From an uncultured Planctomycetia bacterium (GTDB lineage: Bacteria > Omnitrophota > Gorgyraeia > 1-14-0-20-64-10), in contig CAZKNC010000001.1 of assembly GCA_964553935.1 (NCBI GenBank), forward strand, positions 1 to 29,189: a stretch of DNA of 29,189 nucleotides, written 5' to 3'. The stretch's first letter is position 1; the number at the start of each line of letters is the position of its first letter. The notes below the pieces were generated by a model. It saw only the letters and a program-made list of their open reading frames with translations. It did not search any database and had not been told where the DNA came from. The translations under genes were made by a program, and so were the position numbers. Below, in pieces: positions 14,693-29,189 of this stretch.

Positions 14693-15043
14693 ATGATGAC
14701 CTGCATCTATTGCCAGCGCGAATTTGAGCCGTCCAAGTACCGGCGCACCCGTCAGCGGGCGTGCGGTGATCCGCCCTGCCAGAAAAAGCGTCAGCGGGAC
14801 AATCTGCTGGCCTGGCAGGAGAAAAATCCCCTTTACTACCGCATCAAGCGGATGGACCCGACCTGGAGAGGCAAGGCGCGCCTGCGGGCCAAGCGCTGGC
14901 GGATGGCGCACCGCGACAGGATTCAGGCCTATCGCACGGCGACCATGGATCAGTATCGGGTCTACATGCGGGAATACATGCGGCGGTATCGGGCCGTTTC
15001 AAAGACCAAGCCGGTCCAGCCGCCGGCTCCAACCCAAATTTAG
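14693..15043 (+). CDS. Small basic hypothetical protein with a putative Zn-binding C-x2-C-x16-C-x4-C motif
   Basis: CIYC...CGDPPC followed by an Arg/Lys-rich helical tail; lies between the tRNA and the next gene on the same strand. Confidence 0.65.
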   Translation: MMTCIYCQREFEPSKYRRTRQRACGDPPCQKKRQRDNLLAWQEKNPLYYRIKRMDPTWRGKARLRAKRWRMAHRDRIQAYRTATMDQYRVYMREYMRRYRAVSKTKPVQPPAPTQI

Positions 15044-15055
15044 GAGAGACGGCTC

Positions 15056-15313
15056 ATGAACAGTTCCTCGTTCAAAATTCTTGGAATCCTGTCGGTGGTG
15101 CTGAAGGTCTATTCTTTTTTGACCCTTTTTCTCATGGCCATCGGTGTGGTCGGGATTCTGATGGCGGGAGAGGCGACCGGCCCCCAGAAGTTCCAAATCC
15201 TGCTCAACATGGTTTTGGGCGGTACTCTTTTCTTCCTGGTTCTTTACACGCTGAGTGATCTGGTTCGGTTGATGCTGAAGATTGACGCTCAGACAAGTAA
15301 AGAATCTTCATAG
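15056..15313 (+). CDS. Small two-TM hypothetical membrane protein
   Basis: SD-like GGAGAG upstream, two hydrophobic helices and a C-terminal DLVRLMLKID motif. Confidence 0.7.
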   Translation: MNSSSFKILGILSVVLKVYSFLTLFLMAIGVVGILMAGEATGPQKFQILLNMVLGGTLFFLVLYTLSDLVRLMLKIDAQTSKESS

Positions 15314-15374
15314 CCAGCTAACGATATCGTCTTCCAGAACCGTCTCAAGCGTTCGGAATATCTTTTTCGAATGC

Positions 15375-15403
15375 TTGACTTCACAGAACCCATCGGGTAA
15401 CCT
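15375..15403 (+). promoter_or_regulatory. Sigma70 promoter of the TolC-MFP-RND operon, embedded in repeats
   Basis: TTGACT (15375-15380), 17-nt spacer, TAACCT (15398-15403). The -35 overlaps an 11-bp inverted repeat (15345-15355/15368-15378). Confidence 0.6.
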
Positions 15404-15425
15404 CTTCAACAGAAGAGAGACGGTT

Positions 15426-17210
15426 TTGAGACGGTTAATCCCACACTGGCTTTGTTTGACCTGCGGGTTCCTCTCGGCCTGCGGCGCGTTTGTCTGCCCG
15501 GCTTTTTCTGAAGATCAAACAATTACCCTCCAATCGGTTCGAGTTCTCCCCACCCTCGACGGCGATACGGTAGAAATTCAGTCCGATCAGCCCTTCTCAA
15601 TCGTCACTTACACGCTCTCTAATCCGGACCGGCTCATCATTGATCTTCTGGAAACCAATGCTTGGAGCTGGAGCGATTCGGTTTTGCCGGTCTCGGGTCA
15701 GCTCGTCCGCTCCTGCAGGTTTTATCCGCCGGCCGGGGCCAAATCGTCCGAGCAGGTCGATTATCTGGAACTGGTTTTGAAGGAACCCGCCGAGCATTTC
15801 GTGGAACCGGTTTCCGGGAAGCTTACCGTGCATCTGCGGCCAAAAGAGCCGTTCCTCCCGCCTACCCGCGGAGAAGCGCCCATCCTCGCACCGGTTTCCA
15901 CCCTGTGGAGTCTTCAGCAGGCCGAGCAGTTCGGCATTGGGCGGCATCGGCCGGTGCGGATCGCGCGGGAGGAGATCGAGCTGGCTCACGCCAAAGTGCG
16001 GGAAGCGCGCCGGGCGCTGTATCCGGCGGCCACGCTGAAATTCAGCTGGACCAACGGAACCGCGTCCCAGGTGGATTTCTCCGAATACACCACCGGTCTG
16101 CAGTTGGAACAGCCGCTCTATTATTCCGGCCGGCTGATGGAGGCGTACCGGCAGTCCCTGGTGAATCTGCAGGTGGCGGAGAAACGTTCCGGCAAGGTGA
16201 AAGCCGATTACGCCGTGGAGCTGGCCCAGGAATATTTTCAGCTCATCAGCGCGAAGGTCAGCCGCCGAGCCCAGGAGGGGCTGGCGGCAGAAACTGAAAC
16301 GTTCCTGGAAAAGGGGAAAGCGCGCTTCGAGAAGAAATTGCTCACCCAGCTGGAAATCCTCAACATCCAGTCCCAGGTCAACCAAGCCCGATTTCAGCGG
16401 GCCAACGCGGACAACGATGTCACCCTCGCGCGGCTGAAGTTTCTTCAAAAGCTGGCTCTGGAGCCGGGCACCTCCGTCGACGTTCCGGAAGAGTTCCAGA
16501 CGACTGCCCAGCAGGAGGTTGATCTGGAGGAAGCCCTGAAGCTGACGGCCCGCTACAAGCCGGAGATCCTGGTGAACAGTCTGCTGGTCAAGTTTCATGA
16601 ATACGAGGAGCGGATTGCCAAGGCGAAGCTCAAGTGGAAGGTGGATCTCTCCGGCTTTATCGGCGCTTCGGCGGCGGCGTTTGAAACCGAGCCGCTGGAC
16701 GCGGGAGAGGATTATTTCGTCGGTTTCAAGGCCACGCGGGCATGGGGCCCGCACAGCGCCACTGCTTCGGCGACCAAGACCAAAACCTCGCCGCGGCTGG
16801 GGCAGACCACCCGGACCGACTCGACCGTCTACTCGACTGAGATGGGCCTGTTCGACCAGCTGCAGGGCCTCACGGAAATCCAGCAGTCGCAGGTGAATCT
16901 TGAAAAAGCCCGGCGCGACTTGGAGGAATCCAAGAGCGCGGCTTTCCAGGAAGTCCATGAGTCTTATATCAGCTACCAAAAGGCGCGGCTCCAGCTGCAG
17001 TACGCCGATCAGAAGATCGCGTTTCGGGAGGAGCAGGTCAAGATTTTGAAAGCGCAAGCCTCCGTGAATGAAGCCCTTCCTTCGCAGGTTTTGGAAGCGG
17101 TCGTGAAGCTGACCGAAGAAAAAGTGGCCAGAGCGCAGGCGATGGGCAGCTACTACGCGGCGTTGGCGAAGCTCAACAAGGCCGTCGGCCTGCCCGGACA
17201 TTACCGTTAA
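15426..17210 (+). CDS. AMIN domain fused to a TolC-family outer membrane channel
   Basis: TTG 15426 after GAAGAG, then a signal-peptide-like segment ending PAFS. The AMIN-like region includes VEIQSDQPF..YTLSNPDRLIIDL. TolC-like repeats include EARRALYPAATL, LEQPLYYSGRL and YYAALAKLNKAVG. Confidence 0.85.
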   Translation: MRRLIPHWLCLTCGFLSACGAFVCPAFSEDQTITLQSVRVLPTLDGDTVEIQSDQPFSIVTYTLSNPDRLIIDLLETNAWSWSDSVLPVSGQLVRSCRFYPPAGAKSSEQVDYLELVLKEPAEHFVEPVSGKLTVHLRPKEPFLPPTRGEAPILAPVSTLWSLQQAEQFGIGRHRPVRIAREEIELAHAKVREARRALYPAATLKFSWTNGTASQVDFSEYTTGLQLEQPLYYSGRLMEAYRQSLVNLQVAEKRSGKVKADYAVELAQEYFQLISAKVSRRAQEGLAAETETFLEKGKARFEKKLLTQLEILNIQSQVNQARFQRANADNDVTLARLKFLQKLALEPGTSVDVPEEFQTTAQQEVDLEEALKLTARYKPEILVNSLLVKFHEYEERIAKAKLKWKVDLSGFIGASAAAFETEPLDAGEDYFVGFKATRAWGPHSATASATKTKTSPRLGQTTRTDSTVYSTEMGLFDQLQGLTEIQQSQVNLEKARRDLEESKSAAFQEVHESYISYQKARLQLQYADQKIAFREEQVKILKAQASVNEALPSQVLEAVVKLTEEKVARAQAMGSYYAALAKLNKAVGLPGHYR

Positions 17211-17224
17211 CCCGAGGAGTTCGG

Positions 17225-18433
17225 ATGCTTAAACGTCTCCGTGTCATTCTGATTTTCGGCTTGGTTCTTTTCGGGGGATTTGTCCTCGTCAATGGGCTGC
17301 TGCCTAAACTGCTCCAGGGGCCCCAGGTGACCCGCTTGCCGCCGGGAGTCCGGCCGGCCGGGGCCCCCACCGTTTCCGAGGATGCTTTGCCGATCCCGGT
17401 GCGGATTTTTAAAGCCGCGCGGATCGAATTCACCGATCTCCTGCCGGTTTTGGGGACCGTGCGGGGCCAGTCGGAAGTGGAGCTGAAGTTCGAGGTCAAT
17501 GGCACGCTCAAGAACTTGGATTTCCGGGAAGGGGATCTGGTTAAAAAAGGGCACGTGATGGCAATCCTGGACGACAAAGAGCCGCAGCTGAAGCTGGAGT
17601 ACGCCGAGTCCAAGAAACAGACGGCGCAGGCCCAGCTGAAGCTGGCCCAAAAACGGCTTTCGGTGAACGAACAGCTCTACCGGCTGGGAGCGATCATCCT
17701 GCCGAAGCTGGAAGAATCTCAGATCGAGGTTGAACAGGCCCAGACGCAGGTGGAAACGGCCGTCAAAGAGGCCAACATCGCCCGGAACGACATCGCTCGC
17801 ACTGTTCTGAAAGCTCCCATGGACGGAGTGGTCGGCACGCGGCAGGTTGAGGCGGGGGAATACGTCAGCCCTCAGTCGGTGATCGCCACGCTGATGGAGG
17901 TCAGCTCGGTCTTCGTCGAGGTGGGAATCATCGAGCGGGACATCGAGCGGATCCGGCTGGGACAGCGGGTGAAGGTCACGGTCGATTCTCTGCCGAACAC
18001 GACCTTTGAAGGGCGGGTCGACAACCTGGCTCCGCTGATCGAAGGGAAGTCCCGCACGCTCACCGCGAAAGTGAAGGTGGAGAACGCGCAGGGACAGCTC
18101 CTGCCGGGCATGTTCGCCCGCTGCGACATCGCGGTGTTCGAAAAACCGGACGCATTGGTCGTTCCGACCGCCGCGCTCAAGGATGCGGACGGGGATGGCA
18201 AGTTCGAATCGGTCTTCGTGATTCAAGAGGAGAAAGCGGTCTTAAAGCCGATCACGCTGGGCTACCTCACCACCGATTACGCGGAAATCACGCAGGGGAT
18301 TCAGGAAGAAGAGCAGGTGGTGACCGAAGCCCGCGGCAACCTGAAAGAGGGATCCGCCGTCACCTTCCTCGAGGAAGAGGAGGCGGCGTTCCAGCGAACC
18401 GAACCGGACGCGGGCCAGGAGGGTCCGCGGTAA
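17225..18433 (+). CDS. RND efflux periplasmic adaptor (membrane fusion protein)
   Basis: N-terminal TM anchor, lipoyl halves (FEVNGTLKNLDFREGDLVKKG; LKAPMDGVV), an alpha-hairpin and LLPGMFA. Confidence 0.93.
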   Translation: MLKRLRVILIFGLVLFGGFVLVNGLLPKLLQGPQVTRLPPGVRPAGAPTVSEDALPIPVRIFKAARIEFTDLLPVLGTVRGQSEVELKFEVNGTLKNLDFREGDLVKKGHVMAILDDKEPQLKLEYAESKKQTAQAQLKLAQKRLSVNEQLYRLGAIILPKLEESQIEVEQAQTQVETAVKEANIARNDIARTVLKAPMDGVVGTRQVEAGEYVSPQSVIATLMEVSSVFVEVGIIERDIERIRLGQRVKVTVDSLPNTTFEGRVDNLAPLIEGKSRTLTAKVKVENAQGQLLPGMFARCDIAVFEKPDALVVPTAALKDADGDGKFESVFVIQEEKAVLKPITLGYLTTDYAEITQGIQEEEQVVTEARGNLKEGSAVTFLEEEEAAFQRTEPDAGQEGPR

Positions 18434-18437
18434 ACGG

Positions 18438-21400
18438 ATGAGTCTGACCCGCGCCAGCATTCGCCGGCCCGTCACGACCGTCATGATGGTCCTGGGGGTC
18501 GTCCTCCTGGGCGTCATCGCCTGGACCCGTCTGCCCCAAGAACTGTACCCGCCGATCAATTACCCGCAGTTGACCGTCGTGACCCGCTACAAGGACGCGG
18601 CTCCCGAAGAGATCGAACTGCTGGTCACCAAACCGATTGAAGAAGTGGTCGGCACGGTCTCGGGTCTGCGCCGGATCAGCTCCATCTCGAAGGAAGAGAT
18701 GTCCCTCGTCATTGCGGAATTCAACTGGGATACGCAGATGGATTTCGCGGCGCTGGGCGTGCGGGAGAAAATCGACCTGATTAAAGAACGCCTCCCTCGT
18801 GGTTCGGAAGACCCGGTGGTCATCAAATACAACCCCTTCGAACTTCCGGTGATCGTGCTGAATCTTTCCGGAGAACGCCATCCCCACGAACTTCTGACCC
18901 TCGCCCGCAAGCAGGTCAAGATTGAGCTGGAAAAACTGGAAGGGGTCGCTGTGGTCAACCTTTCCGGCGGGCTGGAGCGGGAGATTCTGATCGAGGTGGA
19001 CCAGGGCCGCCTGCAGGCGGCCGGCCTGCCTATTTCCCACGTGGTTGACGGACTTTCCAAAGCCAACCTCCATTATCCGGCCGGCACCATCAAGGAGGCG
19101 TTCTACGAATACCTCATCCGGACGATGGGGGAATTCTCGCTGGTTCGGGAAATCCCCGGCATCGCCGTGGGCGTGGATGAGAAAAAGGACGACCCGGAGA
19201 AGGAGTTCCAGAAACGGATGGAACGGCAGGGCCCTCTGGAGAAAGAAAAGGGGCTGGGCCCCCAACAGCGCCTCATCCTGCTCAAGGATGTGGCGACCGT
19301 CAAAGACACTTATCGCGATCGGGATTCCATTTCCCGCTACAAAGGCCGGGACAATGTCAGTTTGAGCATCCAAAAGCAGTCGGGCGCCAATACCCTTCAG
19401 TTGGCCAAGCAGGTGAAAGAGGCCCTCGGCCGGATCCGCCAATCGCTTCCTCCCGGCATTGAGCTCAGCGTGGCTTACGATCAATCGCTGGCCATCGAGA
19501 GCTCGGTCAACGGGGTTTTGATCGAAGCCCTGCAGGGCGGCGCGCTCGCGTTCGGGATTTTATTCCTGATCCTGGGCAATCTCTGGTCCGCGATCAATGT
19601 GTCGTTCGCGATTCCGATTTCGATCATGGCGACGATCGCTCTCATGTATTTCAGCGGGATCACCATCAACGTGATCTCCATGGGCGGGCTCGCTCTGGGG
19701 ATCGGTATGCTGGTCGACGCCGGCATCGTGGTCGTGGAAAACGTTTCCCGTTACCGAGAGAAAGGAGTTCCTCCCCGCGAAGCGGCCATCGAAGGAACCG
19801 CGGAGGTGGCCAGCGCGATCGGCGGGTCGGTCTTGACCACCATCGTGGTTTTCCTGCCGATGGTGTTCGTGGTCGGCATCGCCGGCCAGTTGTTCAAAGA
19901 GCTGGCCTATACCGTCACCTTCGCTCTGCTGGCCAGCTGGGTGGTTTCCCTGACGCTGACCGCATTGTTTGCTTCCAAGTACCGCGGTTCAGGACGGAGC
20001 CGTTCTCCCATCGAGCCGATTCTGCAGCGGCTCTACCGGGCGGACCAACGCGCGGTCCAGTGGTTTCTGCGCAACCGGATGGTGGGCGCAGCGGCGATGG
20101 TCGTCCTGCTGGTGGCGTCCCTCGTGGTTCTCAAAGGGCTGGACCGCGAGGTATTGCCGCGAGTCGATCAGGGCCAATTCATTCTCCGTGTGGATCTTCC
20201 CCCCGGCACCCGCTTGGACGTCACGAATCGGGTGGCGACCCGGGTGGAGAGGGTCCTGCAGGCCATGCCGGAGGTGCGGGACCTGACGGTCACGATCGGT
20301 TCCTCCAAAGAAAAAAGAGCCGAAGAGCTTCTGGAAACCCTGGGTTCTCACCAATCTCAGATCCTGGTGAATCTTTTTGGAAAACCCCAGCGCACCCGGA
20401 AAACGGCGGAAGTCGTCCAGGAGCTGAAGGAGACCTTGGGCCGGGAACCTCTGGAAGGAGCCGAAATCGAGTACCTTCTTCAAGAGTCGATTTTTAAATC
20501 AGCTTTCCTGGCCGGGGCGCCGGTGGTGGTGGAGGTCAAAGGGACGGACCTGGGCCGGTTGGAGACGCTGGCCCTCGGTATGCGCAAGGAGATGGAAGCG
20601 GTTCCCGGATTGTACGGCGTAAAAACCAGTTTGATCCCGCCCTCTCCCGAAACCAAAGTCCGAGTTTTGAAAGACCGGGCCGCTACCTATCATCTTTCGG
20701 TCAGCGACGTGGCGCTCACCGCGCAGACCGCCTTCAAGGGATTCATCGCCACCAAATTCAAGGAGGAAGGCAAAGAAATCGACGTGCGGGTCCGCCTGCG
20801 GGAGCAGGATCGCCGAGATATGAGCCGGATCCGGCAGATGCTGGTTCACTCTCCGCTGGAGATCGACGTGCCGCTGGCGGAAGTGGCTTACCTCTCTCTC
20901 GGAAAAGGTCCGACGGAAATCCGGCGCATGGATCAACAAAGGACCGTGCTGGTTTCCGGGCAGGTTGCGCGCAGGGCGCTCAGCGACGTCCTGAAAGATG
21001 TCGAAGCTGTTTTGAAGAAAGACAAGGTTCCCACCGGCTACAGCGTGGCGATCACCGGAGAACGGGAAGAGATGCAGGAATCGTTTCGGTCCCTGATCTT
21101 CGCGCTGGCTCTCTCCATCCTCCTGGTTTACATGGTGATGGCCTCGGAGCTTGAATCGCTCTGGCAGCCGTTTCTCATTATGGTGACGATGCCGATGTCT
21201 CTGATCGGCGTGGCCCTTGGATTGTACGTGACGCACACGCCCATCAGCGTCATGGTGGGGCTGGGGATGATCGTCCTGGGCGGTGTGGTGGTGGATAACG
21301 GGATCGTGCTGGTGGAATTTATCAATGAACTGCGCCGGGAGGGAATGGGTTTGGAAGAGGCGGTGGCGGAGGCCAGCCGGATCCGGTTAAGACCGATCCT

Positions 21401-22124
21401 GCTCACCGCCGGGACCACGATTTTAGGACTGCTGCCCATGACGCTGGGCCTCCAACAAGGGGCCGAGCTTCAGATTCCCATGGGCGTCACGATGATGTGG
21501 GGTCTGGCCGTTTCGACGTTCTTGACGCTGATTTATCTTCCGACCGTTTACGTGATCGGCGCGCGATTCTTTGAGAGACTAGAGCGGGTGTTCCAGGTTT
21601 CACCCATGCCTGCGCCGGCGCTGCAGATGGCCGGTCCGCTTCCATCTGTTGAGACGGTTCCAGAACCGTATCAGGAGCCGCCTCCGAAAGAGCCGCCGAT
21701 GCCGGTTGAGCCGCTGCCGGCTCCCCCGGAGCCCTCTCCTGAACTTCCGGAAATTCCGGAGGGCTACGGGAGCGAGGAAGTTGTGACCGATCGCTCTGAT
21801 TTTCCGATTATTCTCCCGGGAGAAATCTTGCTTCCTCCGGAACCGCCCGTCGAGGAGGCCTTCGCCCCGCCGACGTTGCCGGAACCTTTATTTGAGGAGC
21901 CGCCGGAAGAAACCGTTCACCCTGCTAAAGTTCCACTCAACCCGCGCCAGGAAAAACTGCTGGAACATCTGAAAAGCCACGGGCGAATTTCCCGCAAGGA
22001 ATATGTCGAGCTGACAGGAGCTTCCGTTCCGACGGCCGCTCGCGACCTGAAGGAGCTGGTCGACCAGGGATGGGTCCGAGGCGTCGGTCCGCTGGCGCGG
22101 GGAAGATACTATGTCCTTGCCTGA
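18438..22124 (+). CDS. RND permease (AcrB/MdtB-like) with a C-terminal Pro/Glu-rich linker and winged-HTH
   Basis: RRPVTT, TM4 GMLVDAGIVVVEN, TM10 GVVVDNGIVLVE and RLRPILLT. The tail from ~21604 is Pro/Glu-rich, and LNPRQEKLL...DLKELVDQGWVRGVG begins at 21936. Confidence 0.93.
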   Translation: MSLTRASIRRPVTTVMMVLGVVLLGVIAWTRLPQELYPPINYPQLTVVTRYKDAAPEEIELLVTKPIEEVVGTVSGLRRISSISKEEMSLVIAEFNWDTQMDFAALGVREKIDLIKERLPRGSEDPVVIKYNPFELPVIVLNLSGERHPHELLTLARKQVKIELEKLEGVAVVNLSGGLEREILIEVDQGRLQAAGLPISHVVDGLSKANLHYPAGTIKEAFYEYLIRTMGEFSLVREIPGIAVGVDEKKDDPEKEFQKRMERQGPLEKEKGLGPQQRLILLKDVATVKDTYRDRDSISRYKGRDNVSLSIQKQSGANTLQLAKQVKEALGRIRQSLPPGIELSVAYDQSLAIESSVNGVLIEALQGGALAFGILFLILGNLWSAINVSFAIPISIMATIALMYFSGITINVISMGGLALGIGMLVDAGIVVVENVSRYREKGVPPREAAIEGTAEVASAIGGSVLTTIVVFLPMVFVVGIAGQLFKELAYTVTFALLASWVVSLTLTALFASKYRGSGRSRSPIEPILQRLYRADQRAVQWFLRNRMVGAAAMVVLLVASLVVLKGLDREVLPRVDQGQFILRVDLPPGTRLDVTNRVATRVERVLQAMPEVRDLTVTIGSSKEKRAEELLETLGSHQSQILVNLFGKPQRTRKTAEVVQELKETLGREPLEGAEIEYLLQESIFKSAFLAGAPVVVEVKGTDLGRLETLALGMRKEMEAVPGLYGVKTSLIPPSPETKVRVLKDRAATYHLSVSDVALTAQTAFKGFIATKFKEEGKEIDVRVRLREQDRRDMSRIRQMLVHSPLEIDVPLAEVAYLSLGKGPTEIRRMDQQRTVLVSGQVARRALSDVLKDVEAVLKKDKVPTGYSVAITGEREEMQESFRSLIFALALSILLVYMVMASELESLWQPFLIMVTMPMSLIGVALGLYVTHTPISVMVGLGMIVLGGVVVDNGIVLVEFINELRREGMGLEEAVAEASRIRLRPILLTAGTTILGLLPMTLGLQQGAELQIPMGVTMMWGLAVSTFLTLIYLPTVYVIGARFFERLERVFQVSPMPAPALQMAGPLPSVETVPEPYQEPPPKEPPMPVEPLPAPPEPSPELPEIPEGYGSEEVVTDRSDFPIILPGEILLPPEPPVEEAFAPPTLPEPLFEEPPEETVHPAKVPLNPRQEKLLEHLKSHGRISRKEYVELTGASVPTAARDLKELVDQGWVRGVGPLARGRYYVLA

Positions 22125-25100
22125 TGCTTCCATCCGCCGTCCGGTTACGGTCAGCATGGTTTGTCTGGCCCTGGCGGTCCTCGGCGGGATCTCGCTAAGC
22201 CGCCTGCCGATCGAGCTGTACCCCAACTTCAGTTTCGGCGACATCTCCATCATCATCAACATCCGCGGGGGTATGCCGCCCGAGGAGGTTGAAAACCAGG
22301 TGACCCGGCCCGTCGAAGACAACGTGGGAGACGTCAGCCACCTCAAGGATATGATCTCGATTTCCGAGGAAGGCCGCTCCCGCGTGGTGCTGACCTTCGA
22401 GCCGGGCACCGACATGGATTTCGCCGCCCTGGAGGTGAGGGAAAAGTTCTCGAAAGTCCGTTCGAAGCTTCCCAAAGAGATCGAAAAACCGATCATCGCG
22501 AAATTCGAGCAGGAAGACGTGCCGGTCCTGATCCTCGCGGTCACCGCGCCGGATTACACACCGGAGATGCTGCGCCGCCTCGTGGACGAGGAGATCAAAG
22601 ACCGGATCATGCGGGTGGAGGGGGTGGCCAACGTCGACGTCGGAGGGGGGCGGGAGAGGAAGATTCTCGTCGAGATCAATCTGGAAAAGCTCCAGGCATT
22701 CCGCCTGCCGGTGGACCGGGTCACCCGGCTCTTGAGCGTGAGCAATCTCAATATGCTGACCGGAGAGATGGACCGTTCCCGCAGCAAGTATCTGATTCGG
22801 GCCATCGGGGAGTTCGAATCCATCCGGGAAATCGAGGAGCTCGGAATCGCCGTTACCCCCTCCCGTTCGGTGATCCGCCTCAAGGATGTGGCGGTCGTGA
22901 AAGATTCGTTTCTCGAGGCCACAAGCTACGCCCGGGTCAACGCGCTGCCGGTGGTCTCTCTCTACATTCAGAAGGAGACGACCTCCAACACGGTGCAGGT
23001 GGTCGGCCGGGTGATGAAGGTCCTGGACCAGTTCAAGCAGGATCCCCGTTTGCCGAAGGAGCTTCGATTCATCGTGACCCACGATCAGTCCGTGCAGATC
23101 GTTCGGGCCATTGAACTGGTGGGATCGGCTCTCATCAGCGGCGGCACGCTGGCGATCCTGGTGCTGGGGGCTTTCTTTTCCACCCATTGGATTCCGCGGT
23201 TTTTATTCATTCCGTTGGCCGCCGCGGTGACCGCGCTGGCGGTCGCCACATACCGGTTTGGGGGCATTCCGGTCCACACGATCAACGGGCTGGTCAACGG
23301 TCTTCTGGCGGTGCTGCTGCTGACGGCGATCTTGTGGAAGCATCTGCGCCTGACTTTGATCGCCGCCATCGCTATTCCCGTGGCCACCATGATCACGTTC
23401 GGGTTCATGTTCTTTCTGAATCTGCTGGCCAAGAACGTCGGTTTCATGAGTTTGACGCTCAACGTGATGACGCTGGGCGGCCTGGCGCTGGGCGTGGGGA
23501 TGCTGGTGGATAACGCGGTCGTGGTCATCGACAACGTCGTCAAGCGCCGCGCGAAGGGCGAGAGCCCGCGGGCGGCGGCCGGGGAAGGAGCCGCCGAGAT
23601 GCTGCTGGCGATCGCGGCTTCGACCTTAACCACCGTCATCGTTTTCCTTCCGCTGGTGTTCATCAACAAAGAGATCCGGATTCTGTACATCGGTTTCGCG
23701 CTCACGATCTGTTTTTCCCTGCTGGCTTCGCTGGTGGTGGCCCTCTCGGTGGTGCCGCTCATGGCGTCCCGGATTTCTTTTCCGGTGGTGACGGCCGCTC
23801 CTTCCGGACGGGGCCGCGGGCTGAAGCTGAAGGAACGCTACCGCGGATTCGTGATCGGTGTTCTGCGCTGGCGCTGGGCGGTGGCGCTGTGCGTGTTTTT
23901 CCTGGCCGCGGCCGGATTTCAGATCTACCGGTCGATCCCGAAGGAGTTTTTAGGGACCGCCGAGGCCGAAGATTTCACGGTGTTCGTGGAGCTTCCCAGC
24001 GGCGCGAAGCTGGAAATCTCCGACGACGCGGTCGCCAAAATCGAGAAGATCCTGAAAGACGTTCCGGAGATCAAGTCGGTTTCCTCCCGCGTGGAGAAAT
24101 CCTCGTCCAAGATTTACGTCAAGCTGGTCCCGCTGGCCGAGCGATCCCGCTCAACCAAGGACGTGATTGATTCCCTGCGGCCTCCGGTCGAAGAGGTGGA
24201 GCGAGGATTCCGGGAAGCGTTCGTCTACTTTGAAGAGCCGCACGAGGTGGAGTCGAACGAGGTGATCCTGGAGATCTACGGGTGGGACTATGAGGTCTTA
24301 AACCAGCTGGCCGTGGAAATGCTTAAGAGGATGCAGGCGGTGCCCGGCTTGACGGATCTCAAGATCCGCTGGCGGAGGGGAAGGCCGGAATGGCTGGTTC
24401 GTGTGGACAAGATTAAAGCCGCCCGCTATGGGCTGTCGGTGGAGGAGGTCTCCCAGTCCCTTCACGCGCAGATGCGGGGTTTGCGGGCCACGCTGTATCA
24501 CACCGAGTCCAAGGAGGTTGAAGTCGTAACCCGGCTGGAAGAGGCCGACCGCGCCACGCTGGACAAGCTGCGCCGGATCACCTTCACGCTGCCCAGCCGG
24601 GAAGTCATCTTCTTGGAGCAGGTGGCGAAGCTGGAACCGGCCATCGGCCCCTCCAAGATCTGGCGCAAGAACAAACAGCGAATGATCCAGGTCAGCGCCA
24701 ACCGCGGGCGATACGCGTTCGGGGAAGCCGCGCAGAAGGTGTACGGCGCCATTCATGAGATGCCTTTCCCCGAAGATTACTACTGGCGGTTCGGGTCCAA
24801 TTACCAGAAACTGCTTCAAAACCAGAAAGAGCTTGCTCTGGCGCTCGTTCTTTCGGTGCTGCTCATTTTCCTGGTTTTGGCTTCTCTTTTTGAGTCCCTG
24901 ATCCAGCCCTTTATCGTGATGGTTGTTGTGCCTCTGGCGGCCTTTGGAGCTTTCCTGACGCTCCGATTGGCCCATCAAGCCCTTAATGTCGGAGCTTTAA
25001 TGGGGTTGATCCTTCTGGGCGGCGTGGTGGTGAACAACGCGATCATCCTGGTGGATGAAGTGAACCGTCTCCTAGGCAACGGCTATCGGGTTCGAAGGGC

Positions 25101-25374
25101 GGCGGTTTCGGCCGCGATCAGCCGGGTTCGGCCGATCGCTGTCACTTCTTTTACGACCATCCTGGGGCTGCTTCCGCTGGCGATGAGCCGGACTGAAGAA
25201 TCCAGTCTCTGGGCACCGATGGCTTTGGTGGTTATCGGTGGGATGACCGTATCAACTTTCTTAACCCCTATCGTCGTCCCGTCTCTCTACCTGGTTTTAG
25301 ATGATCTTAAACGGATTACCCATCTGATACGGTTTAAAAAGAAGCCAAACGCTTTGCCTGTAACAGTATCATAA
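22111..25374 (+). CDS. Second RND permease (AcrB/MdtC-like) with an extra hydrophobic insertion after TM2
   Basis: RRPVTV, GMLVDNAVVVIDN, GVVVNNAIILVD and RVRPIAVT; 14-nt overlap with the first permease. Confidence 0.93.
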   Translation: MSLPDASIRRPVTVSMVCLALAVLGGISLSRLPIELYPNFSFGDISIIINIRGGMPPEEVENQVTRPVEDNVGDVSHLKDMISISEEGRSRVVLTFEPGTDMDFAALEVREKFSKVRSKLPKEIEKPIIAKFEQEDVPVLILAVTAPDYTPEMLRRLVDEEIKDRIMRVEGVANVDVGGGRERKILVEINLEKLQAFRLPVDRVTRLLSVSNLNMLTGEMDRSRSKYLIRAIGEFESIREIEELGIAVTPSRSVIRLKDVAVVKDSFLEATSYARVNALPVVSLYIQKETTSNTVQVVGRVMKVLDQFKQDPRLPKELRFIVTHDQSVQIVRAIELVGSALISGGTLAILVLGAFFSTHWIPRFLFIPLAAAVTALAVATYRFGGIPVHTINGLVNGLLAVLLLTAILWKHLRLTLIAAIAIPVATMITFGFMFFLNLLAKNVGFMSLTLNVMTLGGLALGVGMLVDNAVVVIDNVVKRRAKGESPRAAAGEGAAEMLLAIAASTLTTVIVFLPLVFINKEIRILYIGFALTICFSLLASLVVALSVVPLMASRISFPVVTAAPSGRGRGLKLKERYRGFVIGVLRWRWAVALCVFFLAAAGFQIYRSIPKEFLGTAEAEDFTVFVELPSGAKLEISDDAVAKIEKILKDVPEIKSVSSRVEKSSSKIYVKLVPLAERSRSTKDVIDSLRPPVEEVERGFREAFVYFEEPHEVESNEVILEIYGWDYEVLNQLAVEMLKRMQAVPGLTDLKIRWRRGRPEWLVRVDKIKAARYGLSVEEVSQSLHAQMRGLRATLYHTESKEVEVVTRLEEADRATLDKLRRITFTLPSREVIFLEQVAKLEPAIGPSKIWRKNKQRMIQVSANRGRYAFGEAAQKVYGAIHEMPFPEDYYWRFGSNYQKLLQNQKELALALVLSVLLIFLVLASLFESLIQPFIVMVVVPLAAFGAFLTLRLAHQALNVGALMGLILLGGVVVNNAIILVDEVNRLLGNGYRVRRAAVSAAISRVRPIAVTSFTTILGLLPLAMSRTEESSLWAPMALVVIGGMTVSTFLTPIVVPSLYLVLDDLKRITHLIRFKKKPNALPVTVS

Positions 25375-25501
25375 CCATCTCAATTAAGAATACCATCCTC
25401 GCTTAATTAGGCACTATAAGCCATCCATTCTGAAGCCCTATGAATTGTACTTAAATAAGTAATTATATAAAGTCAGTTAAAATATCTAATATAAGGAAGT
25501 C

Positions 25502-25531
25502 TTGACGATCGAAATGTGTGGATGGTATATT
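25502..25531 (+). promoter_or_regulatory. Candidate distal sigma70 promoter upstream of the riboswitch
   Basis: TTGACG (25502-25507), 18-nt spacer, extended -10 TG-g-TATATT (25523-25531). Confidence 0.5.
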
Positions 25532-25679
25532 TACACTGTCGGTCAAACGCAAGGGGGGAACAGGGATGAATTCTCATTTCATGGAACTCCGCAATTGCTT
25601 TGGTTTTAAAGGCCTCTTTTCAGTGCTGAAGGGGTTTTCTTTCGGCCATTTTGTTATGACATTGGAAAAGTATTTGAGC

Positions 25680-25709
25680 TTGATTTTATATCCAATACGC
25701 AGTTATGAT
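25680..25709 (+). promoter_or_regulatory. Candidate proximal sigma70 promoter that would start transcription just 5' of the aptamer
   Basis: TTGATT (25680-25685), 18-nt spacer, TATGAT (25704-25709); predicted +1 about 10 nt before the aptamer. Confidence 0.45.
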
Positions 25710-25725
25710 TTAGAAGTTCTACTCC

Positions 25726-25821
25726 CCGATAAAGGCAAACTCGCCGTGAGGCGAGGGCGCAAAGCCACGGATCCCGGATTCTTTAGTATTTTAGAGAATG
25801 GCGGGACAGCCGGGTTGCCGA
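25726..25821 (+). ncRNA. Cyclic di-GMP-I (GEMM) riboswitch aptamer
   Basis: AAAGGCAAAC, P2 stem CTCGCC-GTGA-GGCGAG with a GNRA loop, GGCGCAAAGCCACGG, an extended P3, and GACAGCCGGGTTGCCGA. All match the GEMM-I consensus as I know it. Confidence 0.88.
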
Positions 25822-25863
25822 CTAAAGGATAAAACCAGAAGGAACGGATGAGTCGACAGCCCG

Positions 25864-28800
25864 GTGAATAATTATCGCCACTTTTATAGGCACCATTCTT
25901 CGGTGAAAGAAAGTTCGCCGGAGGTGGAGGGCGCGATCCTGGAATGGAACGCGCCTCGCCGTCGACCTATTCTGCGTTCCGTCGCTTCGCTGACCTGCTT
26001 TGCTTTCGTCATTACCCAGCTTCCGATCCGCCCGGCCTTGGCCGTCGCTCCCCAGGAAGTCGTCACTTTGGGGAACCTCAGCAACATGACCAACGTTGCC
26101 AACCTCGCCACCTTGAATGAGCGCCGCCAATCTCTGCTGAACCGGCTGGAGCGGGAGCGGAATATTCAGGCCAGTGTGGAGGCCGGCTGGCTGACGGCGA
26201 ACGCCGGGGTCGCGCACAACCTTCAGACGCTGAACATCGACATTTCCCGGGCGCGCGAAGCGATCGAGCGGACCGGAAGCCAGGGCGCCTCAAGGGTTCA
26301 GGAGTTGGCCGGTGTGGTGGCCTCTCCCGCGACCACCGGCACGCTGGAATTCAACTACATGCCGGTTCGCAACACCGCCGGCGCCCCGGCCGGCCGCGAA
26401 TGGATGAAGATCTATTTCCGCAACAATCTGGCCAGCCGTGTTCTGGGAGAATGGGTTTCCTCCGCCGGCGGCGGTTTCCTGCGCGATACGTCCAGCATGA
26501 AGTACAACAGCAACCGGCTGCTCCAATCCTACGAGGCCGTCGAATACCGGCAGATTCCAGGCATGCTGGGCGGACGGCTGACTTTGAGGACCATCCGATG
26601 GACCGGCAACTGGACCTCCGATTCAAAATTTTACGCCAGCACGGAGACGGTTGCGGTGCGGCAGCTGCTGGACGAGCGGATTGAAACCACCACGTACAAC
26701 ACCTGGACCCAGGCCGACATCGACCGCTTGCTGACCAAGCTGGCCGAAGTGGAAAGCAAGGTCACCTCGGCCGCCGAGGTGGCTTGGGCGGTGGCCATGC
26801 GCAAGGAGCTGTCGGAAGGAGCGATCGCGGACGGCAAGACCACCCAATTCACCGGGGTTACGGAGCGGTTCTATGAACAGCATGATCGGAACCGCCCGCT
26901 GGCCTGGCGGCAGATCACCACCGATCCCACGGGTGTCACGGAATCGCACGTGACGGTCACCTACATGGGTCCCAAGGACAACAAGCTGTCGAACTATCTG
27001 GAAGAGGGCGTCCGAAAATCCAACCTGATCACCCAGGACGATTACGAACATTACCAGGCCTGGCTGGCCCAGGTGACCGCGGAAGGGACTTTGAGCGCCG
27101 AGCAGTTGACGGCGCTGAAGGCCGCCATGGACCCCATCAAGCCGGGGCAGACGACTGAGACCTTCTTCACCACGGAGCGGACGTATTTCGATTACACCAA
27201 GGACGGCGACCCGCTGCATTTCAAGGAACGGAGGGTTTCGTCCGATTCTTCGGTGGTGACCGAGACCGACTCCACGCTGGTCTACGATGAGCAGCGGCGG
27301 GTGGTTCGGCAGACGGATGTCCGCACCGAGAACGGCGCCTACACCTCCAAGGATATGGAAGCTTTTTGGGCGATGGTACTGGAGGCGGAGCGCAAGGGGA
27401 TCGATGCCGTGGTTGCCGAAGCGGAGTTCGCCGGGGATCTGCGCCGGAAGCTGGAGACCGGAGAGCTCTCCGCCGGGTCGGCCTTCAGCCGGACGGTCGG
27501 GGTGGTGCGCGAGAGTTTCTTGTACAACGAAATGCTTCAGCCGGTGGAGTGGCTTCAAACCACGACGACCGGCGGCACGAAACTGGTCGAGCATTATTTT
27601 GCCTATCACAACGACGCGCAGGGACGGAACCTGGATCTGCTGATCTTATCCGATGAGGAGACCGTCTACACCGCTGAGGATCAGGAACAGCTGCGCCGGG
27701 AAGCGCGGGCGATTCTGAACGCATCGGATTCTAATGACGCGGACCGAGAAGCGGCCCGCGAGCTGCTCCGCCAGCTGAACAGCGGAGATTTTCCAGCCGT
27801 CTTCCGGCGGTCGAGCGTCCGCTACCGCGGCGAGATCGTTTACAACGCGGCCGGGCTACCGATCCAGTACACCGAATATTCCACCTCCAACGCGGACCAG
27901 CTCCTGACCGTGACCGAAGCTCAAGGCCTTCAGTACGACACCAATGGACGGGAGCTTTCCGGTCTTCGGATCACCCATCGGACGGGAGTCGGCACGCGGA
28001 CGGTTTACCGGCTTCCGGACGGGGCGGAGCTGACTCCTTCCATGCTGGAGCAGATGCTGAGGACCCATTCCAGCAGCGGTGACCGGGCGACTCTTCAGGA
28101 GTTGATCGATGCCGGCTTGATCCGAGCTGTCGGCGCTCAGGACAACCCGTTGACCGAAGAGCAGATTGAACAGATCCTGCGCGAGAATCCGATGACGACG
28201 GACGGCGAACCGCGGCCCATGACGCTGCAGGAAGCGATGACGGCGAACTTGCTGGTCCTCTCCGGCTCCGGCGGCGTCTTGCTGGACGAGGCGGCGGTTG
28301 TCCAACTGCTCCGAGAGCAGTCCGTTGCTCCGAACATCGCGACGCTGGAAGAGATGATCGCGCTCGGGCTCATTCAAGCCGACAGCCAGGTTCCGTTCAT
28401 GCTGGATCAGAGAACCATCTCGTACCGGCATGAGACGGTTTATGACAGCATGGGCCGCATCGTCTCGGTGGTGGAAAACAGCGTCGATCCGTCCAGCGGC
28501 CTCCAGACGACGACCCGCTCTTACGGAACCACGTACGACTCCGAAGGAAGGCAATTTTCTTCTTTGACGGAGAGCCGACAGTACGGCAGAACCATCCGGA
28601 CCGGGCTTTTCTTTACCGGAACGGAGAACGAGCTCGATCCGATCGAGCTCCATACGGAGATCGAGCAGAACGGCCTTTCACTGAGCCAATTGATCGAGCA
28701 GGGCGTGATCGAGCGCCGCGAGGTCGACACGGAACTGGATCAGACCACCTTCAGCTACCGCCAGCAGACCCGCTATTACGATTCCAACCAGGTGGAGGGT

Positions 28801-29189
28801 TTCACCGACATCGTCAACACGCTGGGTTTCGGCAGCGATAACATCACGGAGCGGCAGGCGGCCTCGCTGATCCGCTTCAACGACGCGGGCCAGCAGGTGA
28901 GCCAGCTGCTGGTGAGCACCCGCATCGGCACGGACACGCGCACGGTCCACAAATTTGACGGTCGGGACCTCACCTATCTGGATGAGGAGTTCCAGGAAGC
29001 GCTTCATGAAGCCGGCGGCATGAAGCAGCTGATGCGCAGCGGCCGGATTACCGTGGAACATAGGCCGACCGTGGTCAATACCCGGACCTCCACATTCCGC
29101 AGCCACGTGGAGTACGACCGGTCCACCGGTTTCCTCAAAAACCAGGCTGACTTCTCCAGCGGAGACCTTAACCACGGCGTCAATCGGGC
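25864..29189 (+). CDS. Very large exported protein with YD-like/helical modules, 3'-partial (absent from the ORF track); start uncertain (GTG 25864, 25903 or 25924, or CTG 25939)
   Basis: Manual translation of frame 1 finds no stop from 25852 to the window end (more than 1080 codons from any candidate start). Signal-peptide-like RRRPILRSVASLTCFAFVITQLPIRPALA, then recurrent YD-x-x-GR motifs. Confidence 0.9.
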   Translation, partial: MNNYRHFYRHHSSVKESSPEVEGAILEWNAPRRRPILRSVASLTCFAFVITQLPIRPALAVAPQEVVTLGNLSNMTNVANLATLNERRQSLLNRLERERNIQASVEAGWLTANAGVAHNLQTLNIDISRAREAIERTGSQGASRVQELAGVVASPATTGTLEFNYMPVRNTAGAPAGREWMKIYFRNNLASRVLGEWVSSAGGGFLRDTSSMKYNSNRLLQSYEAVEYRQIPGMLGGRLTLRTIRWTGNWTSDSKFYASTETVAVRQLLDERIETTTYNTWTQADIDRLLTKLAEVESKVTSAAEVAWAVAMRKELSEGAIADGKTTQFTGVTERFYEQHDRNRPLAWRQITTDPTGVTESHVTVTYMGPKDNKLSNYLEEGVRKSNLITQDDYEHYQAWLAQVTAEGTLSAEQLTALKAAMDPIKPGQTTETFFTTERTYFDYTKDGDPLHFKERRVSSDSSVVTETDSTLVYDEQRRVVRQTDVRTENGAYTSKDMEAFWAMVLEAERKGIDAVVAEAEFAGDLRRKLETGELSAGSAFSRTVGVVRESFLYNEMLQPVEWLQTTTTGGTKLVEHYFAYHNDAQGRNLDLLILSDEETVYTAEDQEQLRREARAILNASDSNDADREAARELLRQLNSGDFPAVFRRSSVRYRGEIVYNAAGLPIQYTEYSTSNADQLLTVTEAQGLQYDTNGRELSGLRITHRTGVGTRTVYRLPDGAELTPSMLEQMLRTHSSSGDRATLQELIDAGLIRAVGAQDNPLTEEQIEQILRENPMTTDGEPRPMTLQEAMTANLLVLSGSGGVLLDEAAVVQLLREQSVAPNIATLEEMIALGLIQADSQVPFMLDQRTISYRHETVYDSMGRIVSVVENSVDPSSGLQTTTRSYGTTYDSEGRQFSSLTESRQYGRTIRTGLFFTGTENELDPIELHTEIEQNGLSLSQLIEQGVIERREVDTELDQTTFSYRQQTRYYDSNQVEGFTDIVNTLGFGSDNITERQAASLIRFNDAGQQVSQLLVSTRIGTDTRTVHKFDGRDLTYLDEEFQEALHEAGGMKQLMRSGRITVEHRPTVVNTRTSTFRSHVEYDRSTGFLKNQADFSSGDLNHGVNR

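Follow-up and report, generated by a model that had tools for sequence, protein, structure and literature searches.

A winged-helix tail conserved on one permease of a two-permease RND efflux pump of Omnitrophota, and a candidate DNA site at the ends of its operon

Why would the permease of an efflux pump end in a domain of the type that binds DNA? The question is raised by a gene in a 29,189-nt stretch of DNA (contig CAZKNC010000001.1; the whole stretch that was analysed is called the window, and features lie on its forward strand unless stated otherwise). In the window an uninterrupted open reading frame of 1228 amino acids (aa), at positions 18438-22124, encodes RND1, a permease of the resistance-nodulation-division (RND) type. 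RND1 consists of an RND permease core (aa 1-1045, positions 18438-21572), a disordered Pro/Glu-rich linker recognised by its composition, charge and predicted structure (aa 1046-1166, 21573-21935), and a C-terminal winged helix-turn-helix (wHTH; aa 1167-1228), which with the stop codon occupies 21936-22124 (wHTH codons 21936-22121, stop 22122-22124). In Pfam, ACR_tran matched aa 1-1040 at 754.9 bits (cut-off 28; E 1.6e-226) and its model was covered up to position 1019 of 1021, and on these sequence matches RND1 is a true member of the RND family. The tail matched HTH_DeoR on aa 1170-1213 (27.5 bits in the whole protein and 33.6 as the isolated tail; cut-off 21) and HTH_24 on aa 1167-1214 (25.8 and 31.2 bits; cut-off 21.9). 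A first-pass annotation, made from the letters alone, had proposed such a fusion of an RND permease to a wHTH, and the single reading frame and the above-threshold matches at both ends of the protein confirmed it. The wHTH sequence that it quoted was exact, and its Pro/Glu tether of about 110 aa came close to the linker length found here (121 aa by domain boundaries, 118 aa by automated homolog comparison); the start that it gave for the feature (21604) was one base off, as the codon frame starts at 21603, but the linker and wHTH themselves stood. The placement of the tail after the last transmembrane (TM) helix and in the cytoplasm also holds, because the topology of AcrB is established and an Arg-rich stretch follows TM12. 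Finally, the annotation had taken the continuous frame and the overlap with the next start codon as evidence against a read-through, and this was upheld: the ATG (22111) of the downstream permease gene, RND2, sits in the codons for the end of the wHTH (...YYVLA*), and the two genes overlap by 14 nt. The operon runs in the order outer-membrane factor, adaptor, tailed RND1 and untailed RND2, and its gene content and sequence matches mark RND1 as the tailed subunit of an MdtBC-like two-permease tripartite RND efflux pump of Omnitrophota.

A search for the same architecture in other genomes, which the annotation had suggested, was successful, with hundreds of homologs found. Among the best 120 database homologs of RND1 (48-74% identity, 1068-1480 aa), 118 carried the same terminal domain, and when a stop or a frameshift between TM12 and the wHTH was looked for across the homologs none was found, so that the fusion reading stands. 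In addition, a pattern scan of GTDB with one genome per species gave 115 loci with confirmed wHTH matches, 80 of which were retained for analysis, and in 80/80 the wHTH formed, where the contig permits, the C-terminal end of an RND reading frame of more than 1100 aa. An untailed RND2 lay immediately 3′ of RND1 in every locus that extended far enough, and the overlap of its start with the wHTH codons was conserved in related loci. No stand-alone copy of the wHTH was found in the other reading frames of these loci or of the window. The 80 loci were labelled Candidatus Omnitrophota or Omnitrophica in 56 cases, uncultured Planctomycetia or Planctomycetales in 21 and Candidatus Undivivens (assigned by NCBI to the phylum Omnitrophota) in one, and the remaining two had other labels. 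The 21 Planctomycetia/Planctomycetales records are third-party assemblies, and those examined had their gene order and 52-87% wHTH identity in common with Omnitrophota-labelled loci. These results indicated that selection maintains the fusion throughout the phylum Omnitrophota. The copies in public databases are annotated merely as "efflux RND transporter permease subunit".

The terminal domain is a small, basic and strongly conserved wHTH of DeoR/MarR-like type. Modelled alone with AlphaFold, it folded as the predicted winged helix of three helices and two strands at high confidence (predicted local distance difference test, pLDDT, 94.8; helices at residues 6-18, 23-30 and 34-46, strands at 50-53 and 61-64). 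In the consensus, LNxRQxxLLxYLKxxGRITRKEYxxxFxxSVPTAARDLKELxDxGLIxGxGPLAxGRYYxL, ten columns are invariant (R7, R23, S33, T36, R39, D40, G54, G59, R60 and Y62), and both the recognition helix, S-[VI]-P-T-A-A-R-D-L, and the wing, G-P-x3-G-R-[YW]-Y, are near-invariant. The domain was net positive in 118/118 homologs (+2 to +13, median isoelectric point 10), with +4 and an isoelectric point of 9.9 in the window. Sequence-profile matches in the PDB were to the helix-turn-helix of CAP/CRP (E 4e-4), to AsnC/Lrp and to the C-terminal domain of Coxiella Fic2 (8cil, E 0.005), and fold matches were to the DNA complex of AspA (which binds centromeres), MarR-operator, ArsR repressors, Fic2 and DIP2311 (3lmm), with template-modelling scores normalised to the query of 0.73-0.84 for MarR, ArsR, AspA and Fic2. 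The invariant S33, T36 and R39 align on S179, T182 and R185 of CAP, which contact DNA. When the wHTH profile was searched against 1.8 billion representative proteins, the top of the 276 matches at E <= 1e-10 was taken by RND tails or fragments of them. The non-RND relatives, as classified with Pfam, were AlbA_2 plus HATPase_c_4 ("RecG C-terminal") proteins ending in one or two such wHTHs, proteins built of 4-8 tandem wHTHs, a helicase carrying a wHTH array, and a sigma-54 activator in which this wHTH replaces the usual DNA-binding domain. The likeness to the wHTHs of Fic and RecG-C proteins that had been remarked on earlier was thus borne out, the former by the profile match and the fold match to 8cil (normalised score 0.84), and the latter by the fold match to 3lmm and by the AlbA_2 plus HATPase_c_4 proteins, which are the nearest non-RND relatives. 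The DeoR-type wHTH of CbFic2, which was assayed on generic double-stranded DNA, binds DNA and so switches the attached enzyme (PMC10628234). The window also encodes a Fic/DOC-family protein (313 aa, 1919-2860; Fic domain E 7e-22), in which the RND-tail wHTH profile had no match. By its relatives, the family context of the wHTH is DNA binding, and the charge, the conserved helix 3 and wing and the alignment with CAP suggest these two elements as the putative DNA contacts. We consider DNA binding of some kind, by the tethered or a released domain, to be somewhat probable.

A different use of the same surface has to be weighed here, namely that the wHTH would bind protein (or RNA) and dock a cytoplasmic partner on the pump, in the style of FeoC and FeoB. 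The profile and fold matches included wHTHs without DNA-binding activity, in ESCRT-II and the ribosomal protein eS25, a strictly conserved surface would fit a conserved protein partner equally well, and the linker peptide conserved in the clade of the window (see below) suggests protein-protein contacts. The best sequence and fold relatives, however, bind DNA (the sigma-54 activator and the AlbA_2/HATPase_c_4 regulators), and the positive net charge is universal. Furthermore, no gene for a candidate partner was kept beside the operon throughout the compared lineages, and the tail does not match the FeoC family of Pfam. We therefore regard docking of a partner as rather unlikely, and DNA binding by the wHTH remains the reading that we follow.

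If the wHTH binds DNA, which site might it recognise? When the DNA 5′ of the outer-membrane gene was compared with that of related operons, a repeated 10-mer emerged, TGAKACNGTT. At the 5′ end of the operon a single inverted copy, TGAGACGGTT (15338-15347, reverse strand), lies 28 nt upstream of the -35-like hexamer of a promoter-like element, TTGACT-N17-TAACCT (15375-15403), and matches in position and orientation a copy in loci L082 and L083. The promoter-like element was located by eye from the aligned upstream regions; the pattern TTGAC(A/T)-N17-TAnnnT is kept in most of the related operons compared, but a consensus scan missed the window element, whose -10 agrees at 3 of 6 positions. A tandem pair with 11-nt spacing, GAGACGGTT-TT-GAGACGGTT (15417-15436; 0 expected in shuffles), extends over the ribosome-binding position of the outer-membrane gene and its TTG start codon (15426), and the same pair was found in L082, L083, L084, L086 and L138. 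At the 3′ end a single forward copy, TGATACGGTT (25325-25334), lies in the last codons of RND2, and a tandem-pair scan detected a reverse pair (25362-25381, reverse strand) over the RND2 stop codon; this arrangement of a forward copy and a reverse pair is the mirror image of that at the 5′ end. The window held 7 motif matches against 0.25 expected, 6 of them inside the operon span, and just two tandem pairs, one at each end of the operon. The two regions that the annotation had named for electrophoretic mobility shift assays (15338-15436, and 25375-25720 at its start) contain or abut the motif. The motif scan also detected two convergent copies in the linker-coding DNA, TGAGACGGTT on the forward and TGATACGGTT on the reverse strand (21650-21673). 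In linker- and wHTH-coding DNA, 4 copies were found against 0.7 expected (window, L005 and L008); the copies lie at 21650-21673 of the window, at 3863 of L005 and at 5733 of L008, with a further one at 5525 of L013, outside the counted stretch. These copies are of doubtful significance, and their excess may be a composition effect because Glu-Pro codons (GAACCG) favour the motif. Loose in-gene matches also arose from Asp/Glu-Thr-Val codons, for instance in the AMIN region of the outer-membrane gene and in a downstream gene of L014, L062 and L080.

Three other origins of the motif pairs were rejected. They are not in-frame peptide repeats, as at a spacing of 11 nt the two copies of a pair at an operon end cannot share a frame, and one of them falls outside coding sequence. 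An RNA hairpin is disfavoured as well: the 5′ copies of the window are complementary, but the 3′ copies of L084 pair with two mismatches and without compensation, and the orientation and position of the motif relative to the promoter shift between lineages, so that a DNA site was judged likelier. Nor are the copies the terminal inverted repeats of a mobile cassette, as no transposase was found and the flanking genes are syntenic across the clade of the window. Copies 11 nt apart face the same side of the helix and are read in different frames, and orientation and position vary with lineage; on these grounds we consider a protein-binding DNA site a better account of the motif than a repeated peptide or an element acting as RNA.

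The motif cluster at the promoter was present in 11/11 distinct related operons with upstream DNA (49-70% RND1 identity; L082, L083, L084, L086, L087, L088 and L138, 63-70% where measured, and L089-L092, 49-53%), while the remaining intergenic sequence of these operons had no evident similarity. In L091, six perfect 10-mers occurred in 300 bp. The position varied from downstream of the -10 (window) to between -35 and -10 (L091) or abutting the -35 (L090), and in L145 the motif lies in the 5′ leader of a small-gene pair; sites over the core promoter and the transcription start are at a position typical of a repressor. The pair at the stop codon recurred in identical register, 12 nt before the end of the stop codon, in L003, L005, L010, L011, L057 and L084-L086, and across all loci there were 38 tandem pairs versus 5 in shuffles. 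Position 4 of the motif can be G or T inside a single genome. In ~280 kb of long-flank Omnitrophota sequence, motif clusters off the operon boundaries were rare: one follows lnt in L092 (with the same arrangement in L016), and four looser copies form a group in the giant gene downstream of the operon in L087. The recognition helix is as invariant as the motif, which would be in keeping with the wHTH as its binder; the helix barely varies and so offers no variants whose covariation with the motif could be compared. Furthermore, the wHTH is the sole DNA-binding-type domain that is always encoded in these operons. Other candidate regulators near the operon vary by lineage, with a Cys-rich protein in some and a ROK-family regulator, which adjoins the operon in L089-L091, in others.

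The whole is best explained, although tentatively, by a membrane-tethered DNA binder that would regulate or anchor its own operon. The first-pass annotation had offered direct transcriptional control, a protease-released regulator and a membrane anchor for DNA as possible roles. After TM12, RND1 continues as a disordered cytoplasmic tether of variable length ending in the wHTH, and the wHTH would bind DNA while joined to the pump. The permease oligomer would supply two or three copies of the wHTH, which would be needed since this 62-aa domain comes without a dimerisation module. The tether, perhaps reaching up to tens of nanometres, would let the wHTH reach the nucleoid, and the nucleoid region of the operon would lie near the membrane because the operon products insert co-translationally. 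More speculatively, the target would be the TGAKACNGTT tandem pairs at the two ends of the operon, which cover the region from the promoter through the transcription start to the start codon on one side and the stop codon of RND2 on the other. A wHTH bound to the motif would then repress the operon, so that transcription would drop as pumps accumulate in the membrane; as an alternative or additional effect, the contact between wHTH and motif would physically hold the operon at the membrane. That the repeat bracketing the operon is the target of the wHTH, with pump-number-dependent repression and/or membrane anchoring of the operon as the outcome, is a more doubtful proposal. It is equally doubtful that the pump itself serves as the transcription factor and DNA anchor of its genes, with transcription of the operon set by the number of pumps in the membrane. 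We know of no described transporter that gauges its copy number by binding the gene that encodes it.

Several observations weigh against such an operon-bound regulator. The tail was absent in 2 of the 120 homologs (P0081 and P0092); both stand in the same operon layout, on contigs that end at the operon edges, and the existence of these tail-less orthologs means that the pump works without the tail. Two operon orders occur, the majority one of the window (outer-membrane factor, adaptor, RND1, RND2) and RND1-RND2-adaptor in 13 loci. In the latter, RND1-first operons the motif was not found within ~260 nt upstream of RND1 in any of the 12 cases whose RND1 start could be located, yet all 13 keep the same recognition helix, and six share a leader with a terminator-like hairpin. 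The tandem motif is also not exclusive to the operon. An exact-pattern scan for GATACGGTT-NN-GATACGGTT gave at least 120 metagenome stretches (L093-L212), and recognisable operon genes were present in 7 among these matches listed; other sites preceded parA, ndk, genes for AbiEi-type antitoxins and further genes. A strong bias in the spacer dinucleotide (TT, AT, CT) implies that many of the metagenome sites are real elements and not chance occurrences, and some of the sites probably belong to unrelated systems. Moreover, the motif could have another binder, such as a soluble global regulator or the Cys-rich protein that lies beside it in 14 loci, and wHTH domains in general can bind protein or RNA as well. 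Among the metagenome sites, the recurrent neighbours were AbiEi-type antitoxin genes on GC-rich peat contigs and parA on low-GC contigs; some contigs carried 3-4 consecutive 11-nt motif units, and one cluster of motif contigs bore generic names and one "Deltaproteobacteria" label.

Part of these observations would be accounted for if the wHTH bound DNA without sequence preference and simply coupled pumps or the membrane to the nucleoid, perhaps so that pumps are positioned or the chromosome is organised in very small cells, the motif belonging to another regulator. The domain is small and basic, its relative in CbFic2 was assayed on generic DNA, and the motif occurs in many other gene contexts and is missing upstream of RND1 in the RND1-first operons. 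Such a tether would leave two things unaddressed, however: the near-invariant recognition helix and wing suggest one specific conserved ligand, and the motif lies precisely at the operon boundaries in lineages with differing neighbour genes. We consider coupling without sequence preference to be improbable, and a specific, membrane-tethered binder is still preferred.

The linker was the least conserved part of the tail. In the window it contains 29% Pro, 20% Asp+Glu and 3% Lys+Arg, with a net charge of -20, and the homologs have linkers of between 20 and 357 aa (median 105). The clade of the window has acidic Pro/Glu linkers with a median net charge of -15.5, and the distant members have near-neutral Pro/Glu/Lys ones. 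In an AlphaFold model of the whole tail, made from a 21-sequence alignment, the end of TM12 was helical, the linker had no secondary structure (pLDDT ~50-70) and the wHTH was again predicted with confidence. Within the linker, a short linear motif, PELPEIPEGYGSEEVVTD (aa 1101-1118, positions 21738-21791), was kept in 37 of the 40 closest homologs; the peptide of this clade reads PE[LV]PEIPExFG[GS]EEAVP, with invariant E, P, G and E, and the pattern search used did not find it beyond the 40 closest homologs. A second island, PEP ([IL]GxPEP, 21837-21845), follows ~20 residues after the first in the homolog alignment. No confident contact between the linker peptide and the wHTH was seen in the model of the whole tail, and the conserved acidic peptide may be a site for a partner, for a protease or for self-inhibition.

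A linker that is long, exposed and disordered, with a conserved short motif in the clade of the window, could also be the substrate of a protease. The tail would then be a precursor that is cut, perhaps at or near PEIPExFGxEE, to free a soluble wHTH regulator, a case of regulated proteolysis of a transcription factor tethered to the membrane, with the state or turnover of the pump as the signal, and release would explain how the domain reaches sites distant from the membrane or elsewhere in the genome. Against this, the pattern search did not find the conserved peptide in about two thirds of the wHTH-bearing homologs, some linkers are as short as 20-44 aa, no protease gene was conserved in the operon neighbourhoods of the compared loci, and the freed 62-aa wHTH would be left without an oligomerisation domain, so that release is distinctly improbable. 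Finally, that the fusion is an artefact, in which an assembly or sequencing error, a lost stop or a read-through joined an RND gene to a small regulator gene, has on its side the general experience that odd metagenome fusions can be errors and the RND1 of L053 (2579-6186), broken into two overlapping reading frames of 666 and 559 aa by either a frameshift error or pseudogene formation, but it is ruled out by conservation and effectively refuted, given the in-frame fusion in 118/120 homologs from independent assemblies and in 80 loci with wholly different linkers, the lack of a stand-alone wHTH beside any operon, and the conserved overlap of the RND2 start with the wHTH codons.

The other genes of the operon complete a tripartite set, which also accompanies RND1 in related loci. 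The outer-membrane factor is TolC-like (15426-17210; OEP E 2.3e-29; TolC family); its N-terminal ~130 aa resemble an AMIN domain weakly (E 0.0055, below the cut-off) and contain a conserved DGDTVEI, AMIN domains being usual on secretins and amidases. The periplasmic adaptor, a membrane fusion protein, follows at 17225-18433 (HlyD_D23 E 7e-32; RND_mfp 241.6 bits, cut-off 94.9). RND2 (22111-25374, 1087 aa) is 33% identical to RND1, and relative to it has a mostly hydrophobic insertion of ~60 residues at aa ~375-435, early in the first transmembrane bundle, which could be extra membrane-spanning segments. The proton relay of AcrB uses an acidic pair, Asp407/Asp408, in TM4; at the presumed position of this pair, taken without a residue-level alignment to AcrB, RND1 (LVDAGIVVVEN) and RND2 (LVDNAVVVIDN) have one Asp each. 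Upstream of the operon lie a gene for a small basic Cys-rich protein (14693-15043, 116 aa), whose four Cys near the N-terminus suggest a zinc ribbon, and one for a small membrane protein of 85 aa (15056-15313), both recognised from their translations, the latter between the Cys-rich and the outer-membrane genes. Homologs of the Cys-rich protein (112-138 aa) were found beside the operon or the motif in the 14 loci mentioned above, three of which (L145, L169 and L198) were found solely by the motif scan, and the order of the two small genes recurred in L081-L088 and L145. Pfam gave no match for the two small proteins when their L082 homologs, not the window copies, were tested.

Elements of other kinds were observed around these operons. 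Neither the leader of the window operon nor those of the RND1-first operons contained a known RNA family of Rfam. Downstream of the window operon, a c-di-GMP-I-GGC riboswitch (25725-25823; 69.7 bits, above the gathering score) precedes a reading frame (25852-29189) that exceeds 1112 aa and is still open at the window end; at the same place in related loci, 3′ of the operon, the called genes encode ~2,800-9,340 aa. In L018, L019, L049, L050, L051 and L061, in which RND1 is the first visible operon gene, a common leader of ~170 nt upstream of RND1 comprises a TGGTATAAT-type promoter, a conserved GGGGCTGGCA box and a terminator-like GGGGG...CCCC hairpin with a U-tract; it had no Rfam match and could be an attenuator or an undescribed riboswitch. 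In more distant operons (L014, L022, L027, L028, L034, L038, L040, L043, L053, L054, L062, L063, L067, L076 and L079), the last ~40 nt of RND2 contain a conserved extended -10 promoter, TGGTATAAT, soon followed by a conserved downstream gene whose product starts MDKTLRSILW.

How does this pump compare with known systems? RND pumps are among the best-studied bacterial transporters, and to our knowledge their regulation always goes through separate soluble or two-component regulators. The annotation had known of no characterised RND transporter with such a domain, and no paper describing an RND permease with a helix-turn-helix was found in full-text literature searches on RND, winged helices and Omnitrophota and on Omnitrophota efflux; the fusion is real, phylum-wide and uncharacterised. 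If the proposal is true, a phylum-conserved permease with a DNA-binding-type domain and a candidate operator at its own promoter would connect a membrane machine physically and directly to the gene that encodes it. This would raise general questions about the coupling of membrane-protein dosage to transcription in very small cells, the action in cis of membrane-tethered regulators on co-translationally inserted operons, and the role of long disordered tethers. It also gives a function-relevant annotation to hundreds of Omnitrophota proteins, and a short motif and a 62-aa domain are open to study in vitro without culturing the organism.

The closest NCBIfam models were MdtC and MdtB/MuxB for the permeases and MdtA/MuxA for the adaptor, and the operon resembles MdtABC of E. 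coli and MuxABC-OpmB of P. aeruginosa in having one adaptor gene followed by two tandem paralogous permease genes. RND1 scored 376 bits with MdtC (cut-off 1774) and 363 with MdtB (cut-off 1584), and RND2 352 and 349; because these scores are far under the equivalog cut-offs, the window pump is not orthologous to MdtABC or MuxABC. MdtB and MdtC, unlike RND1, have neither a cytoplasmic tail nor a wHTH. The MdtB2C pump is the sole characterised two-permease type known to us. MdtBC functions as a B2C heterotrimer (PMC7015380, citing Kim et al. 2010), which makes a fixed number of tailed subunits per pump plausible. In CbFic2 (8cil) and the AlbA_2 plus HATPase_c_4 protein DIP2311 (3lmm) a bigger protein likewise ends in a small wHTH of this family, but these carriers are soluble enzymes or regulators, whereas RND1 is a 12-TM transporter with a long disordered tether. 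DeoR-family regulators combine an N-terminal helix-turn-helix with a C-terminal DeoRC domain; in RND1 the helix-turn-helix is at the extreme C-terminus and Pfam found no DeoRC, so that by its domains RND1 shares only the DNA-binding module with this family and is not a DeoR-family regulator. FeoC likewise is a winged helix associated with a membrane transporter, FeoB; it is a small wHTH protein that was first taken for a transcription factor, and the evidence favours a role at the transporter over DNA binding. However, FeoC is a protein in its own right and belongs to a different Pfam family (PF09012), and the RND1 tail gave no FeoC match at E up to 0.1. ToxR, CadC and TcpP have an N-terminal OmpR-type wHTH, a single TM helix and a periplasmic sensor. 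In RND1 the wHTH is C-terminal, DeoR/MarR-like and borne by a 12-TM permease, and it had no match to the OmpR-type Trans_reg_C family of Pfam. What the two have in common is a winged helix held at the inner membrane on a flexible cytoplasmic linker, which in the ToxR-type proteins acts on promoters from that position (see also PMC8517210), and by this analogy RND1 may work like regulators of the ToxR/CadC type, though it is not a member of them.

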